Origin: Minisyncoccota bacterium
Lineage (GTDB): Bacteria; Patescibacteriota; Minisyncoccia; Phycocordibacterales; UBA1006
DNA length: 64,000 bases
NCBI GenBank assembly: GCA_021209525.1
Contig: JAJOIF010000009.1
Location: 22,285 to 86,284 of the forward strand
Direction of reading: 5' to 3'
The position numbers and the translations under genes were made by a program. Positions 7,319-63,329 of the stretch are shown here, piece by piece (the stretch's first letter is position 1; each line of letters starts with the position of its first letter). The notes beneath the pieces are model-generated. The model was not told where the DNA came from and did not search any database. It saw nothing but the letters and a program-made list of their open reading frames with translations.

Positions 7319-7379
7319 GTCACTCTCGCGGGTCTCGCTACGCGCTTTGCGCTTGCTGCGACCTCGCTCCCTTGACCTC

Positions 7380-7468
7380 CACGCGGGCCCTTCCTCGACT
7401 CTTTCGCATTCGCTTCAGAGTCTGCGGGCTTCGCGGGCCCTTGGTTCGATTCTTCCACCGCACGCAAA
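7380..7468 (+). ncRNA. Candidate structured RNA element (GC-rich, about 90 nt), copy 1; second copy at 9948-10033
   Basis: The element is about 65% GC in an AT-rich genome. Two helices covary between the copies: GGGCCC/GGGCCC versus GGACCC/GGGTCC, and GACTC/GAGTC versus GGCTC/GAGCC. Its 3' end carries a T-arm-like GGTTCGATTC. The strand assignment is tentative. Confidence 0.4.
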
Positions 7469-7475
7469 TAAAATT

Positions 7476-7496
7476 CCCAAAAGCGCTGCTTTTAGG
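7476..7496. terminator. Palindromic hairpin (CCCAAAAGC-GCT-GCTTTTAGG) shared by tRNA-Gly(TCC) and the upstream GC-rich element
   Basis: An A-tract, GC core and T-tract give a bidirectional terminator architecture. The longer 10-bp version at 10041-10063 is conserved. Confidence 0.45.
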
Positions 7497-7512
7497 AATA
7501 ATATTTGCAGTG

Positions 7513-7583
7513 TGCGGGTGGGGAGAATCGAACTCCCCTCTTCTGCTTGGAAGGCAGACATTCTACCAATAAACTACACCCGC
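7513..7583 (-). tRNA. tRNA-Gly (anticodon TCC)
   Basis: The reverse complement reads GCGGGTG-TA-GTTTATTGGTAGAAT-G-TCTGC-CTTCCAA-GCAGA-AGAG-GGGAG-TTCGATT-CTCCC-CACCCGC-A. It forms a cloverleaf with anticodon TCC. Confidence 0.85.
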
Positions 7584-7654
7584 ATGGGAGGACTTGGTTA
7601 TAGTATCAAATAATATTTTTTTGAGCAAGCCCTCGCTCTTCTCTCTACCAACTA

Positions 7655-24828: not shown

Positions 24829-26325
24829 ATGCAGAAGACGCATATATTTTCTTTGACTGTTGGTGTTATTATAGGAATTATACTTGGATACATAACGCCC
24901 TTTGCGCTTTTTTGGGTGCTGTGCTCTATAAGTCTAGGTGTTATTATAGGAATTATCGCGTACACGTATCCGCCGCACACCCACGCGCGAACCTATCTCT
25001 ACATACTCAGTATATGCTGTATAGGATGCGGGGTGGGAGCGATGAGGAGTCATGTCTTTCATCAAACTCTTGACCCTGAACTTGATGCAAGGGCCGGCAC
25101 GCGTGTGCACCTCATTGGACATATTGATGAAATAGAAGAACGAGCGCATAATCAACGAACAATTTTGTATGCACACACACTCATTGATGGAGAAGACCGT
25201 ATTCCCATTCATGAAAAAATACATGTCAGTTTTGATTATGGCACGACTCTTGATTTTGGTGATGAAGCATCTGTACAAGGGGTACTCAAAAAACCAGAAG
25301 GGTTTATTACAGATACGGGGAGATTATTTGCGTATGATCAATTTCTCGCAAAAGATACCATATATGCGACCATTTCTTTTGCAGAAGTAAATCGAGAAAG
25401 TGTTGGACGACGAACCGTACGGAGTAGGCTCATACTTCTCAAGAAAAATATGCGCCTGCGCATACTCCGCATCTTTCCAGAAAAAGAAGGGTCTTTCTTG
25501 GTAGGAATTATTCTCGGCGAAAAACATTTTATTCACTCGGATGTGCAAACATCATTTCGAAAATCTGGGCTCATACATATATTGGTGCTCTCTGGGTTTC
25601 ATATAACCATGATATCACTTGCCATACTATGGTGTATGCGCCTCATATTTCCTCTACGCCTAGCGCTCGCAATTAATGGCATCATTATTGTGCTTTTTAT
25701 CCTTATGGTGGGTGCAAGCGCAACCATCATACGCGCAGGAGGTATGGCAATGATTGCTCTCATTGCACGCATATTAGAACGCGAACATATAGGTATGCGC
25801 GGTCTCCTTATGGTGGGGACAGGTATGATGATACATAATCCGCGCATCCTCCTTTGGGATGTATCATTTCAGCTTTCTTTTTTAGCAACGCTCGGATTAA
25901 TTATTTACTCGCCATTTTTTGCAAAAAAATTACAAGGCATTCCTCAGTTTTTTAATATACGCGAAACAATGAGCGCAACGCTGTCTGCTCAAATCTTTGT
26001 CACACCGCTCATTATGTACCAAATGGGTGAGATATCTCTCATATCAATTATCGCTAATGTGCTCATTGTACCACTCACTGCATTTTCTATGATTTTTGGA
26101 AGTATTGCAGGTATTACTGGCGAAATACTCCCCATATTACAACCTTTCATACGATTACCTGCATATGCAAGCGCGCATCTTCAAATTACAGGGGCAGAAA
26201 TTATGGGATCACTTCCTTTTGCATCTATTTATGTGCCCCGTTTTTCATTCTTTTTCCTTGTTATAATCTATATACCTATCCTGTGGATAAGTTGGTATGT
26301 GTATAAAAAACAGAGCACTCCATAA
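24829..26325 (+). CDS. comEC: ComEC/Rec2-family DNA-uptake channel protein (no metallo-beta-lactamase domain)
   Basis: FLVGIILGEKHFIHSDVQTSFRKSGLIHILVLSGFHITMISL is the ComEC competence-domain signature. Confidence 0.8.
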   Translation: MQKTHIFSLTVGVIIGIILGYITPFALFWVLCSISLGVIIGIIAYTYPPHTHARTYLYILSICCIGCGVGAMRSHVFHQTLDPELDARAGTRVHLIGHIDEIEERAHNQRTILYAHTLIDGEDRIPIHEKIHVSFDYGTTLDFGDEASVQGVLKKPEGFITDTGRLFAYDQFLAKDTIYATISFAEVNRESVGRRTVRSRLILLKKNMRLRILRIFPEKEGSFLVGIILGEKHFIHSDVQTSFRKSGLIHILVLSGFHITMISLAILWCMRLIFPLRLALAINGIIIVLFILMVGASATIIRAGGMAMIALIARILEREHIGMRGLLMVGTGMMIHNPRILLWDVSFQLSFLATLGLIIYSPFFAKKLQGIPQFFNIRETMSATLSAQIFVTPLIMYQMGEISLISIIANVLIVPLTAFSMIFGSIAGITGEILPILQPFIRLPAYASAHLQITGAEIMGSLPFASIYVPRFSFFFLVIIYIPILWISWYVYKKQSTP

Positions 26326-26466
26326 TACGTCCAAAGAATAAAAAGCTGAGATTTAAAAACCCGCGCAATAGAAGCGCAGGTCATGAAAATTAATATACTC
26401 CTTATAATATAAGGGTTTTATAAAAGACATAGAAATATGTCGTATAGAAGAATACTGCATTGTCTT

Positions 26467-26808
26467 TTATTTTTTAGTACGCGTAGCAATACTCACAACA
26501 AAGATGAGCGTAAAAACACAAGCAAATACCATTGCTTGTGTTTTGAGAGATGTAAACATTTGCATATCTTTCTTGCCTATTTTAAAAAACAAGATAGTAA
26601 TACATATAAAAATAACAGCGAGAGATACTCCCCCGAAGACAGAGTGACGATGATTACGTCTCATGAGAATAATAAGGTTTAGTTTCACAATCAAGTGTAC
26701 TATAAAAATACCAGGTTGTATACTCGCTATTACCAGCACAATTATTTTGTTTATATCTTGCGCCTTATATTTTGCTACCCCATCACTTGACTTCACTTGC
26801 TTATTCAT
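26467..26808 (-). CDS. Hypothetical small membrane protein
   Basis: The ORF is hydrophobic and lies in an otherwise empty 570-bp gap upstream of rpsS. Confidence 0.3.
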   Translation of the reverse strand: MNKQVKSSDGVAKYKAQDINKIIVLVIASIQPGIFIVHLIVKLNLIILMRRNHRHSVFGGVSLAVIFICITILFFKIGKKDMQMFTSLKTQAMVFACVFTLIFVVSIATRTKK

Positions 26809-37257: not shown

Positions 37258-37882
37258 AATAGTAAGGTTTTATTTACATCCAACATTACGCTTTTTATTA
37301 AAAAAGTCAAGAGTCTCGGCACACAGCATATTTTCACGCCCGCTGTATTTCTTGTATCTATAACACTCATGTTTTTGTGTCGCCAATATACGCAGAAGCG
37401 TATTTTATACTCATTGTTTTTTCTTATAGAAATTTTGCCACACAAACCAGCAATGATCATGGCACACCTTGCGCGCGAGCACTGTGTCTCATATATACAT
37501 GTCTTTAATAGCTCACATTACCTGTCTTTTACAAATGTCTTTGTGAAACAAGGTGTCTGTGTAGCACAAGAGCACGCACATGAAGTATGTACAGCGTTTC
37601 ACATACACAATGAAACATGAATGATCTGCACAAGAATACGAGAACAAAAGGAAATAAGAGTACTTACTCTACACACTCACACATGCAACGTATATACAAT
37701 GATGTGTTACACGGCAATACGCACTCTACAAAAAATGAAACGTCATTCATAAATTATGTGTGAAATAATGCACAGGCAGGACAGCAGATCTTGCTCATAT
37801 ATATACAGCATATATATTTCATTAATGACTCTACATGTATGCGAGCAAAAGAATCTCTTACAAATATGTGAAACACGCCGTA

Positions 37883-37984
37883 CCGCAATATCACTTGGTG
37901 TTTCATAAAAAATAAAACGAGCTTCTATAAAAAATATGTATGTGCCTATATGATTTTTGTGAAACACCAAGTGATATTATGCGG
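37883..37984. repeat. Inverted repeat of about 24 bp (arms 37883-37906 and 37959-37984, 22/24 matching) within a non-coding island containing TGTGAAAC/GTTTCACA and GTCTTT motifs
   Basis: CCGCAATATCACTTGGTGTTTCAT pairs with ATGAAACACCAAGTGATATTATGCGG. The arms are about 52 nt apart. Confidence 0.55.
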
Positions 37985-38064
37985 GTCGTATTAATTCTTT
38001 AGGAAAAATAAAAGACCCTCCTGATTAAAAAAATGGGGGTCTTTGTCTGTAAGTCATTTTGTCG

Positions 38065-39633: not shown

Positions 39634-39651
39634 ATTTTGAAAAATGATTAA

Positions 39652-40381
39652 GATCTTCCCTTGATAGAATAATCAACAATATCTTGTCTAGATACAGGAG
39701 TACTTGATGACTTCTGATGAGGTTGAGAAAATTTTAAACTCGCCATGCGTGAAAAAATAACCACCCCATTGCCGTTAGGTCCAAATTTATCTAAAAAGTT
39801 TTCATAAATAACATAGCTTGGTAAACCCGTTATTCTTTTTTCAGAAAAACATCGTATTAGCTTGATACGATTATCTTGGCCTTGATATAGCCAATTTGCC
39901 TCTCTGTGTTCAACATAAGACGGGTATTTAAAGGTGATTAAATAAGAAACTATTTGAGCGAGAATGTCCTCTTTTTTAGAAAAAAGATCACTCCTTTGAA
40001 TAATAACCCCTTGATCACAAATAATGTCTTCTTTTAGCTTTGTTGAACAAATTACAATATGTGGTGGCGGTGTTATTGAAAAGGTATTTTCATTCGGAAT
40101 ATTTTTTACAAATAATGCAAATTGACCTTTTTATCTACGTCCAAAGTGACATACCCATTACTGCCACTTACAAAAAAATTACTTTTTCTTATAGTTTTGT
40201 AAGGATGGGTCGCCCCTGAAGATCTATTTTCTATATAATGTACCATGGCTTGCAAATCATCATCAGAAACAGATCCGCTGTGCACCAAAGACAGAAATTT
40301 TTCTAGCATTTCTGCTGAAACAGATTGATGTATATTCATATGTGTAAGTTTTAGATTTACCCGAGCATAACAAAGCGGCAC
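39652..40381 (-). pseudogene. Frameshifted gene: two overlapping minus-strand frames of about 90 aa and about 150 aa that join at a T6/A6 homopolymer (40102-40107)
   Basis: The track ORF 40106..40381 ends in a TAA inside the homopolymer. A second frame is open from 40130 down to 39652 (KNIPNENTFSITPPPHIVICSTKLKEDIICDQ...SIKGRS) and has no upstream Met. A 1-nt shift would fuse the two into a protein of about 245 aa. Confidence 0.4.
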
Positions 40382-40448
40382 ACGTAGTCAAGGAACGATT
40401 TTACACCACCAACACCAAAGCGGCCTACAAAATTTTCTCTTTGCTCAT

Positions 40449-40590
40449 ATAATGTCTTTTATAAAAACTTGCAAAACATTGCTGTATATAATGAATACAT
40501 ACACAATATGCATACGGTTATCCCTAAAAGACACATACTTATCCACAGGTAATTTTGCTAAACGACACTTACTTGCTATAATGTCTTTGA
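40449..40590. repeat. Non-coding island sharing the 17-mer AATGTCTTTTATAAAAA (40451-40467), AAAAGACACAT (40526-40536) and a perfect TTATCCACA box (40539-40547) with the 9697-9912 island
   Basis: The matches are direct sequence identity. Confidence 0.55.
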
Positions 40591-40870
40591 TAGTTCTTTC
40601 CGCTGATCTTTTATAATTGCATATATTTGCACATTCAGCTAGCGCTGTCATTCGTAATTTCTTTCCAAAGAATTTACTTTACATACAAACAATAAAAAAC
40701 AAAAGCAACGCACACACACATAAAAACTTTACCTTTCAGAACTTTCCCTTGAACTCTTTCAAGGAAACCACACAATATATTAAAGCCGCTCTTCCGCAAT
40801 TTTGAGTGGCTTTTCTTTTTCTTGAAAAAAAATGATATACTGACATACGTAGCTATTAATTTATATACAT

Positions 40871-41221
40871 ATGTCATTACCTATAGAAATACTCAAGGAA
40901 AAATTACTCGCAGAAAAAGCACTCTTGGAGCAAGAACTCAACCATATTGGCAAGAAAATGGATACTGAATCATCAGACTGGATTATTGGCACCGAAGGGG
41001 GTGGCGATCATGCAGATATTCAAGAAAATGCAGATGAAGTCATTGATTTTCAACAACGCATTGCATTACTTGAGCCACTGGAACAACAATATCAAGATGT
41101 TCTAGATGCTCTTGATAAAATAGACGCAGGAACCTATGGTATTTGCGAAAAAACAGGTGACGCAATTCCCGAAGAACGCCTCATGGCAAATCCTTCTGCG
41201 CGGACTTGCGCGCACTGCTAA
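40871..41221 (+). CDS. DksA/TraR-family C4 zinc-finger protein
   Basis: The C-terminus reads GTYGICEKTGDAIPEERLMANPSARTCAHC with C-x2-C...C-x2-C spacing. Confidence 0.7.
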   Translation: MSLPIEILKEKLLAEKALLEQELNHIGKKMDTESSDWIIGTEGGGDHADIQENADEVIDFQQRIALLEPLEQQYQDVLDALDKIDAGTYGICEKTGDAIPEERLMANPSARTCAHC

Positions 41222-62265: not shown

Positions 62266-62904
62266 ATGATCGACGCAGAACTACAACAAATCATTGACTC
62301 ACGCATGGCGGAGCTTCCACAATACAGCAAAGAGGCACTCCTTGCTTCAAAATGGGAACAAAAACTTCAAGCCCTTTGTGCGCAACATGGACTCTTGCTT
62401 GATGAAGCAGAAAATGTGTACACTGAAACACTTCTTATTCTTCTTGGGGTAGGGTATCCTGAGCTCTACGAAGACAATATAGTGCGGCGTGCTGGTATTG
62501 ATAAAAAAACAGCAGATGCCCTCATTGCTGATATTTACAGCAAGATATTCGAACCCCTGCAAGCAGATATTATTGCTCGCACAGAATCAGCGAGCACTCT
62601 GCGCAATGAACTCTTTGAATCAGCAACACAAACACCCGCAGAAAGAGAAGCGGCAGAACCTCAAGCACTACACCCAAAACGCGATGACTTGATCAAGGAA
62701 ATTGAAGACCCTTCAAAAACAGACACAGCTCTCAGTCGTATGAAAATGAATGAAATTGTTACAGAACCGCCTGTCACGAGCACTCATGGTCAAGCAATAC
62801 CCCCAGCACCTAAAAAAGAAGTAGTTATCTCTGTAGAGCGAGCGCCTGCACCTGCAGCATATGCATCTCCTCACGCAGATCCATACCTAGAACCTATTGA
62901 ATAA
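62266..62904 (+). CDS. Hypothetical protein in the T4SS-like cluster
   Basis: The only support is the open frame. Confidence 0.45.
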   Translation: MIDAELQQIIDSRMAELPQYSKEALLASKWEQKLQALCAQHGLLLDEAENVYTETLLILLGVGYPELYEDNIVRRAGIDKKTADALIADIYSKIFEPLQADIIARTESASTLRNELFESATQTPAEREAAEPQALHPKRDDLIKEIEDPSKTDTALSRMKMNEIVTEPPVTSTHGQAIPPAPKKEVVISVERAPAPAAYASPHADPYLEPIE

Positions 62905-62909
62905 ACCCT

Positions 62910-63329
62910 ATGCGCTACCAAACACCACAATTTATCAATATCGAAGACAAAATCTTTGGTCCGCTCACCTTTAGACAATTTGTCTATATTCTCGGCGGAG
63001 GAGGTATTAGTTATCTCTTGTTTCGTTTCTTACCAGGTGTAATTGCCATTCCTTTGATTGTTATTGTTGCTGGTTTTGCCCTTGCCCTTGCCTTTTATCA
63101 AGTAAATAACCGCCCTTTTATTTACTTGGTGCAATCTATGATTGGTTATGTTATTCGTGATAAATTCTATTTATGGCGCAAGGTGCCTAAAAAAACATCT
63201 CCTTCTGAAGCGGTTGATGGAGTAGACGATGTAGCACCCCTTGAACCAAAACTGAGCGAGAGTAGGCTCAAAAAACTTGCGTGGAGTCTCGATGTGCTCG
63301 ACATGCAAAACAACAATACAGATGAATAA
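62910..63329 (+). CDS. PrgI-family-like small membrane protein (VirB3-like role)
   Basis: The N-terminus MRYQTPQFINIEDKIFGPLTFRQFVYILGGGGISYLL plus two TM helices matches the PrgI pattern. Its position immediately upstream of a VirB4-like gene is typical. Confidence 0.5.
   Translation: MRYQTPQFINIEDKIFGPLTFRQFVYILGGGGISYLLFRFLPGVIAIPLIVIVAGFALALAFYQVNNRPFIYLVQSMIGYVIRDKFYLWRKVPKKTSPSEAVDGVDDVAPLEPKLSESRLKKLAWSLDVLDMQNNNTDE

Follow-up and report, generated by a model that had tools for sequence, protein, structure and literature searches.

The intergenic stretch at 40440-40620 of the window (64,000 nucleotides (nt) of contig JAJOIF010000009.1, from an uncultivated bacterium of the Patescibacteria) is probably the regulatory region and the start of a gene for a small RNA of about 240 bases, which would respond to DnaA and would also carry operators for a second factor. 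A consensus DnaA box lies upstream of a sigma-70-type promoter, and several copies of a short word, M1 (ATGTC[T/G]TTT(A)), surround the same promoter. The word, the box and the distance from the box to the promoter have been kept in the closest relative. The boxes and M1 also occur together at two other places in the window.

The genome is of the Parcubacteria/Paceibacteria type. Patescibacteria (Candidate Phyla Radiation, CPR) are uncultivated; very few transcription factors can be recognised in them, and studies tend to pass over their intergenic DNA. To our knowledge, almost nothing is known about their gene regulation or the control of their replication. The DksA-like protein encoded beside the flagged island (40871-41221) is unchanged in contigs of the assemblies GCA_021208345.1 and GCA_021208725.1, which are named Candidatus Pacebacteria at NCBI. 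In the nearest species representative of GTDB, ComM is only 58% identical. The flagged island is the same, letter for letter, in four same-strain contigs, which therefore say nothing about its conservation. The comparison relies on the closest relative, locus L085 from a Logan assembly, in which the gene order is kept and the protein identities are 83% for NYN, 80% for the M29 peptidase and about 64-65% for DksA and ComM. The closest relative in a metagenome scan reached at most 74%. The 17-mer and a 15-mer described below were also counted in a background of 175 related Patescibacteria loci, 1.27 Mb in total.

Promoter core and predicted transcript

The elements of the flagged island are given below. 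The 17-mer, the boxes and the words that an earlier, sequence-only reading had placed in the window were all located correctly.

40451-40467 (+): 17-mer AATGTCTTTTATAAAAA, called M1a, about 90 nt upstream of the -35 element; L085 has ATGTCGTTT at the equivalent place (L085:5595)
40518-40526 (+): degenerate DnaA-type box TTATCCCTA, the first of a three-box group with a spacing of 9 + 12 nt; its counterpart in L085 is TTATCACCT, upstream of the perfect box there
40526-40534 (-): M1 copy (AAAAGACAC on the + strand), also at the middle-box position of the group; kept in L085 as AAAACGACAT
40526-40536 and 40539-40549: words AAAAGACACAT and TTATCCACAGG of the sequence-only reading
40537-40549 (+): perfect DnaA box in its extended form ACTTATCCACAGG, with all 13 nt identical in L085
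40555-40582 (+): sigma-70-type promoter TTGCTA-16-TGcTATAAT, the best of the region (10/12, extended -10)
40560-40568 (-): M1-like word AAACGACAC in the promoter spacer; AAACGACAT in L085
40581-40589 (+): M1 copy ATGTCTTTG, overlapping the end of the -10 element and the predicted start site; ATGTCGTTA at the same place in L085
40589-40825 (+): predicted non-coding transcript of about 237 nt, its ends inferred from the sequence

The order of these elements is the same in the window and in L085. The M1 copy on the - strand is separated by 4 nt from ACTTATCCACAGG, which in both sequences ends 7 nt before the -35 element. The spacer then contains AAACGACA(C/T) and is followed by TGnTATAAT, GTC(T/G)TT and AGTTCTTTCC. 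The core at 40526-40602 is 80% identical to L085, as against 24% in the upstream and about 50% in the downstream flank, and what has been kept comprises the M1 copies, the 13-nt box, the 7-nt gap, the extended -10 element and the first transcribed bases. The orthologous promoter, TTGATA-17-TGtTATAAT (11/12, extended -10), is likewise the best sigma-70-type site of its region. The words at 40560-40568 and 40581-40589 form an inverted M1 pair around the -10 element. Three copies of ATGTCGTTT are found in L085 between the gene for a 330-residue protein and dksA.

The predicted transcript has the makings of a small RNA gene: a short unit with its own promoter and its own intrinsic terminator, and no conserved open reading frame (ORF). 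It has an A/C-rich unpaired center that includes a conserved GCAACGCA block, a hairpin at 40745-40762 and, at its end, a 10-bp terminator stem (40782-40813) followed by a U-rich tail. Its folding z-score is -4.27, or -3.92 when the terminator is left out, compared to -1.62 for the antisense strand. The orthologue in L085 (5700-5945, about 246 nt) has a z-score of -4.90 and a strong 12-bp terminator, and the A/C-rich center with GCAACGCA is common to both. The two transcripts align with gaps of 5, 2 and 6 nt, a pattern that speaks against a coding region. No Rfam 15 family reached its gathering score in the islands, where only chance-level matches, with E up to 5, were obtained.

M1 and DnaA boxes across the window

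The 17-mer is present exactly at 40451-40467 (+) and 9817-9833 (+), and with two mismatches at 26415-26431 (-). With up to three mismatches there are six matches in the window, compared to 0.96 expected, and none of 100 shuffled sequences reached six. The earlier argument that the words shared by two separate intergenic regions are unlikely to be due to chance is thereby supported. The 17-mer also proved not to be some AT-rich word of frequent occurrence, as had been feared: the background contains neither the 17-mer (two copies in the window) nor the 15-mer ATGTCTTTTATAAAA (three copies). The 17-mer is the longest form of M1. Among the 8-mers in the intergenic DNA of the window, the core of M1, GTCTTTTA, shows the strongest enrichment, with nine of its ten copies being intergenic compared to 0.94 expected. 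In the frequency table of the word TGTCTTT is invariant, and A is preferred both before and after it. The copies form four intergenic clusters and are also found at syntenic positions in relatives:

9698-9912: four copies and two degenerate ones
26422-26468: two copies
37499-37543 (+): three copies in direct orientation (37499, 37522 and 37535), on the border of an 800-nt island with many half-parS words
40452-40589: three copies, with a fourth in the promoter spacer

Over all loci, ten adjacent pairs of M1 are no more than 120 nt apart, whereas 1.05 are expected and 500 randomizations gave at most five. Three other identities of the word were considered and rejected. It is not an ordinary -10/-35 or extracytoplasmic function (ECF)-type promoter, as a plausible -10 element precedes only 5 of the 12 copies (all copies, judged by eye). 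It is not a start codon followed by Ser-Phe codons, because ribosome-binding sites are lacking and the ORFs that follow, of 10, 25 and 54 residues, are unrelated. The resemblance to a dif/Xer-type site is only partial, and the copies are many.

The window contains three perfect DnaA boxes (TTATCCACA; 0.58 expected, p ~0.025), at 40539 (+), 9741 (+) and 26282-26290 (-). Each of them is accompanied on the same strand, at a distance of 10-25 nt, by a second box with no more than two mismatches (0.02 expected; three in none of 200 simulations), and the distance from each group to one of the three long M1 copies is 50-110 nt. The preferred form of the box is TTATCCACAG, and the 13-mer ACTTATCCACAGG is common to 40537-40549 (+) and 26280-26292 (-). 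The boxes and M1 recur together at 9685-9912 and 26282-26468, which accounts for the presence of both the 17-mer and the box in the two islands that had been compared originally. The consensus DnaA 9-mer is present in all three places, and the groups are intergenic, close to the origin and adjacent to promoters, except for the pair at 26282-26306, which is inside comEC. The third locus, the enrichment of the M1 core, the cluster at 37499-37543, the RNA gene and an orphan ORF described below go beyond the sequence-only reading.

The island used as a comparator, I9 (9685-9912), and the array adjoining it contain the following features:

8953-9612: parS-like array of seven palindromes (tGTTTCACGTGAAACa, at most three mismatches), two of them inside yraN/UPF0102
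9685-9693 and 9714-9722: M1-like words
9698-9706 (-), 9787-9795 (-), 9817-9833 (+, the 17-mer) and 9904-9912 (-): M1 copies
9698-9705 and 9741-9750: words AAAAGACA and TTATCCACAG of the sequence-only reading
9720, 9729 and 9741 (+): DnaA boxes
9753-9780 (+): promoter-like site

The block at 9713-9750 (GCGTCTTTTATGCACCTTATTCACCTAGTTATCCACAG) has been kept as ATGTCGTTTATGCACCTTGTGGACATGTTTATCCACAG in locus L092, the CCA enzyme of which is 68% identical to that of the window, and it stands there beside a syntenic parS array. The same module of three boxes, with 9 + 12 nt spacing and a nearly invariant last box, is found in two Kaiserbacteria (L064 and L065) and in L160, giving five lineages in all, and the flagged island shows this geometry too. 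ATGTC abuts the first box in L092, L064 and L065. In L160 the order is yraN, the three boxes, an inverted M1 pair, tRNA-Gly, tRNA-Arg and the CCA enzyme. Apart from L092, relatives with 68-75% identity of the CCA enzyme and broken synteny contained nothing that bears on I9.

The parS-like sites number seven in the window, compared to 0.54 expected, and all are at 8953-9612. The palindrome GTTTCAC(G/A)TGAAAC, which was found as the second enriched word of the window, is the canonical parS site of ParB/Spo0J. Arrays of parS occupy the syntenic place in L092 and L064, and comparable arrays are present in L005 and L160. The 16-bp palindrome is not found at 40341-40870, and a literature search on parS in Patescibacteria found nothing.

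The third locus (26282-26468) is on the - strand:

26290-26282 (-): perfect DnaA box TTATCCACA, inside the 3' end (last 45 nt) of comEC
26306-26298 (-): box TTATACACA, also inside the 3' end of comEC
26430-26416 (-): 15-mer ATGTCTTTTATAAAA
26422-26430 and 26460-26468: M1 copies

Between comEC and a convergent gene for a membrane-like protein of 113 residues there are two tandem hairpins on the - strand followed by runs of T (26355-26385 and 26398-26445), one of them weak and based on M1 and the other GC-rich. The fourth cluster is at the edge of a gene-free island (37258-38064), which has seven half-parS words ([GA]TGAAACA) and a 25-nt inverted repeat (37887-37911 and 37954-37978). The syntenic region of the closest relative (L085:3493-4054) has six M1 copies and five half-parS words, but otherwise does not align with 37258-38064.

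The flagged stretch is not simply the non-coding island that it was thought to be, since it adjoins two units of its own, the probable RNA gene at 40589-40825 (+), which lies upstream of the dksA-like gene and comM, and a divergent orphan ORF:

39648-40339 (-): orphan ORF, apparently split by a frameshift near 40106-40130 into 77 residues and a 160-codon open frame (39648-40130), about 237 residues together
40391-40364 (-): promoter-like site

The ORF has no homologue in Pfam, the PDB or the databases searched and no counterpart in L085, and may be a decaying or a very young orphan gene. A search of the islands for genes hidden by stop-codon reassignment gave no convincing gain, the exception being the 160-codon frame, which uses the standard code. 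L085 illustrates the usual neglect of such regions, as public gene calls cover two of its M1 regions with ORFs that appear spurious. One call (L085:5595-5870, 91 residues), whose start is the M1 word ATG TCT/TCG TTT, takes in the promoter and the non-coding transcript. The other (L085:3551-3859, 102 residues) covers the M1 cluster. In the two calls the start codons and internal Met-Ser-Phe motifs are M1 words (ATG TCT TTT).

Several small rearrangements are found around I9. The window (10078-10340) and L160 (369-555) carry the tRNA-Gly(GCC)/tRNA-Arg(TCG) pair on the - strand and L092 (9787-9960) carries it on the + strand, a difference that amounts to a small inversion adjoining the conserved three-box module. 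An inverted partial copy of a tRNA 3' end is present at 10010-10039. A 220-nt duplication (7366-7585 and 9932-10151, 80% identical) comprises a tRNA-Gly gene, a hairpin terminator common to both copies and, over about 100 nt, a GC-rich element. The latter has two helices, each with a compensatory change between the copies; its folding z-score is about -1, not better than shuffled sequences.

Proposed mechanism and alternatives

In the proposed mechanism, the promoter at 40555-40582 would drive a structured transcript of about 237 nt, ended by the intrinsic terminator at about 40782-40825. DnaA would bind the group of boxes upstream of the -35 element, and its binding may link the state of replication initiation to RNA transcription or to the local DnaA pool. 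M1 would be the operator half-site of a DNA-binding protein, probably a repressor, with four copies at the promoter: the 17-mer about 90 nt upstream, one copy abutting the DnaA box, one in the spacer and one across the -10 element and the start site, the last two being inverted around the -10. Such a placement is the usual layout of repressor operators. The operator reading of M1 is suggested by its enrichment, clustering and syntenic conservation, as well as by its placement. The part given to DnaA is suggested by the consensus box, the tight grouping, the fixed and conserved distance to the -35 element, the position near the origin and the precedent of Bacillus subtilis. DnaA of B. subtilis binds stably at intergenic clusters of boxes near oriC and regulates adjacent genes, sda, ywlC and yydA among others (Ishikawa et al. 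2007, PMC2533591). Stable binding there needs tight groups of boxes on the same strand and is set by the density and affinity of the boxes, four successive boxes being used for scoring (PMC2533591). The earlier suggestion of paired sites for DnaA or another regulator thus appears sound as far as the arrangement of the sites goes, which comprises the box 7 nt from the -35, kept in L085, the tight same-strand groups and M1 around the promoter.

Several observations weigh against this interpretation. The groups consist of two or three boxes, only one of them perfect and the partners with one or two mismatches, compared to 4-10 boxes in the clusters of B. subtilis, and one pair (26282-26306) is within a coding region. 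M1 occurs in both orientations and at variable spacing (4-77 nt for inverted and 12-45 nt for direct pairs), which is unusual for a dimeric operator and would suit a monomeric binder or RNA hairpins better. The inverted pairs at 26416-26445, in L065 and in L160 look like weak hairpins at gene ends. No candidate for an M1-binding protein was found, as the neighboring orphan proteins have no family matches and the single-sequence structure models, with predicted local distance difference test (pLDDT) values of 40 and 47, are unusable. The two-sequence alignment of the window and L085 yields no consensus RNA structure, and a profile search of all loci found the RNA unit only in the species of the window and in that one relative.

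A different explanation, which is rather unlikely, holds that the box groups mainly titrate or recycle DnaA, as datA and DARS or the clusters of B. subtilis do, that M1 is the site of an accessory architectural protein, the part taken by IHF at datA and DARS2, and that the RNA gene is incidental. The three-box module beside parS has indeed been kept from the window to the Kaiserbacteria while the content downstream of it has not, all the modules are proximal to the origin, and ATGTC abuts the first box in three lineages. Clusters of this kind lie near oriC in B. subtilis (PMC2533591). The flagged island, however, keeps the promoter together with the distance from the box to it, which fits transcriptional control, and two or three boxes would make a small sink. 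M1 does not match the consensus of IHF, and this counts against an IHF-like architectural role. A datA-like titration may, nevertheless, coexist with control of the promoter. A proposal that M1 works in RNA, where inverted pairs (AAAAGACAU ... AUGUCUUUU) would form A/U-rich hairpins that weakly terminate transcription in both directions or that act in RNA processing or stability, is improbable as a general account. It would fit the variable loop lengths, which suit hairpins more than dimeric operators, and also the positions of three pairs: GACATAtttcTATGTC followed by TTTTATAAAA at 26445-26416 (-), directly after the stop codon of a gene; AAAAGACATC-N9-GATGTCTTTTAT between two genes in L065; and ATGTCTTTT-N5-AAAAGACGT right after tRNA-Gly in L160. 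Pairing is impossible, however, for copies arranged as direct repeats, as are the three at 37499-37543 and several in L085; the conserved copies in the spacer and upstream of the promoter would be left untranscribed, and the terminator scan reports none of these hairpins. It is hardly credible that the shared words are a decayed mobile or dispersed element, such as a miniature inverted-repeat transposable element (MITE) or a repetitive extragenic palindrome (REP), or chance matches in AT-rich DNA. Such a source would fit the intergenic M1 copies of both orientations, some of which form inverted pairs. The similarity between the islands, however, ends at 17 nt, which indicates a short word and not a dispersed repeat, and there are no terminal repeats or target duplications. 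The idea that the islands are remnants of one repeat family is not supported, for this reason and because M1 is found at orthologous positions where the flanks no longer align; the absence of the 17-mer from the background and the shuffle controls dispose of chance.

The islands could also be, or have been, replication origins, second or ancestral, with the boxes as an array, M1 as the repeats of an unwinding element and parS nearby, but this is very unlikely. The deep conservation of the three-box array beside parS and the AT-rich DNA around M1 would agree with such a role; repeats of the TAG/GAT trinucleotide type, the mark of DnaA-trios, were not seen by eye in the AT-rich DNA with M1 repeats beside the boxes. 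The + strand carries 87% of the coding bases at 16.8-73 kb (the window and locus L094), pointing towards dnaA, as if forks ran rightwards from about 10-17 kb. The cumulative GC skew, on the other hand, falls monotonically through 9.7, 26, 37 and 40.5 kb and flattens only towards 60-73 kb, near dnaA, and the replication-associated component of the skew at third codon positions (GC3 skew) does not change sign at 9.7 kb (-0.118 on one side and -0.076 on the other). None of the islands is therefore the origin, and the DnaA-box groups are outside oriC; I9 in particular is ruled out as oriC by the skew. The classical arrangement of rpmH and dnaA, with boxes of its own, is instead found 9 kb beyond the window, where jag, yidC, yidD and rpmH (-) are followed by dnaA (+) at a window coordinate of about 73178. 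The window thus spans about 9-73 kb from dnaA, and the flagged island is about 33 kb from it. The gap between rpmH and dnaA (L094:19900-20266, about 72.8-73.2 kb), which is probably the dnaA promoter or a part of oriC, contains two perfect boxes, TTATCCACAG and TTATCCACAT, 20 nt apart upstream of dnaA, and no M1.

The same gap contains the palindrome CTTATAAAAC-AG-GTTTTATAAG. According to the GC3 skew the + strand at 16.8-73 kb is the C-rich, lagging strand, and most genes, including the ribosomal protein genes at 26.9-31 kb, would consequently be head-on to replication. A cluster resembling type IV secretion or conjugation systems (PrgI, a TraC-like protein, a VirB4/TraG-type P-loop ATPase and NlpC/P60) is positioned between the right end of the window and the dnaA region (62266-63329 and L094:10001-16154).

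Relation to known systems

DnaA-box clusters and DnaA-regulated promoters outside oriC are an already known kind of element. The groups in the window resemble those of B. subtilis in being tight, intergenic sets of TTATCCACA-type boxes near the origin and beside promoters. They differ in having two or three boxes per group, with a fixed 9 + 12 nt spacing across Paceibacteria, and in having M1 interleaved with the boxes and a small RNA as the predicted regulated unit. One region of B. subtilis is bound by both DnaA and Spo0J (PMC2533591), and I9, with its parS array, would be expected to bind both as well. The seven palindromes resemble known parS/ParB sites in being proximal to the origin and partly inside genes, as is usual for parS, although seven sites in 660 nt are unusually dense; the flagged island has none, and M1 is not a variant of parS.

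The datA, DARS1 and DARS2 loci of Escherichia coli are clusters of DnaA boxes outside the origin, which work with a second DNA-binding protein (IHF or Fis) to control the state of DnaA. The combination of box clusters and a word for a putative second protein is analogous, but there is no sequence relationship, and M1 resembles neither IHF nor Fis sites. The RNA unit shares with bacterial small RNA genes its own promoter and intrinsic terminator, the lack of a conserved frame, folding above background and its presence in a relative; unlike known families, it has no Rfam match and is found in two related species only.

What is new is the conserved geometry of the three boxes in Paceibacteria, the lineage-specific word interleaved with them and an undescribed small RNA unit as the probable regulated gene. 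A more far-reaching and doubtful proposal is that the M1 factor has co-evolved with the three-box module beside parS into a CPR-specific system linking initiation, segregation and a DnaA-responsive small RNA, an analogue of datA/DARS and IHF built of different parts.

The locus offers a conserved DnaA-box module of fixed geometry, a partner word and a gene for a small RNA that may act as a reporter of the DnaA state. If the proposed reading is correct, the regulation of transcription by DnaA at origin-proximal box clusters, as established in Bacillus and E. coli, would extend to a deeply divergent phylum, and M1 would be a bait sequence for finding a new regulator.

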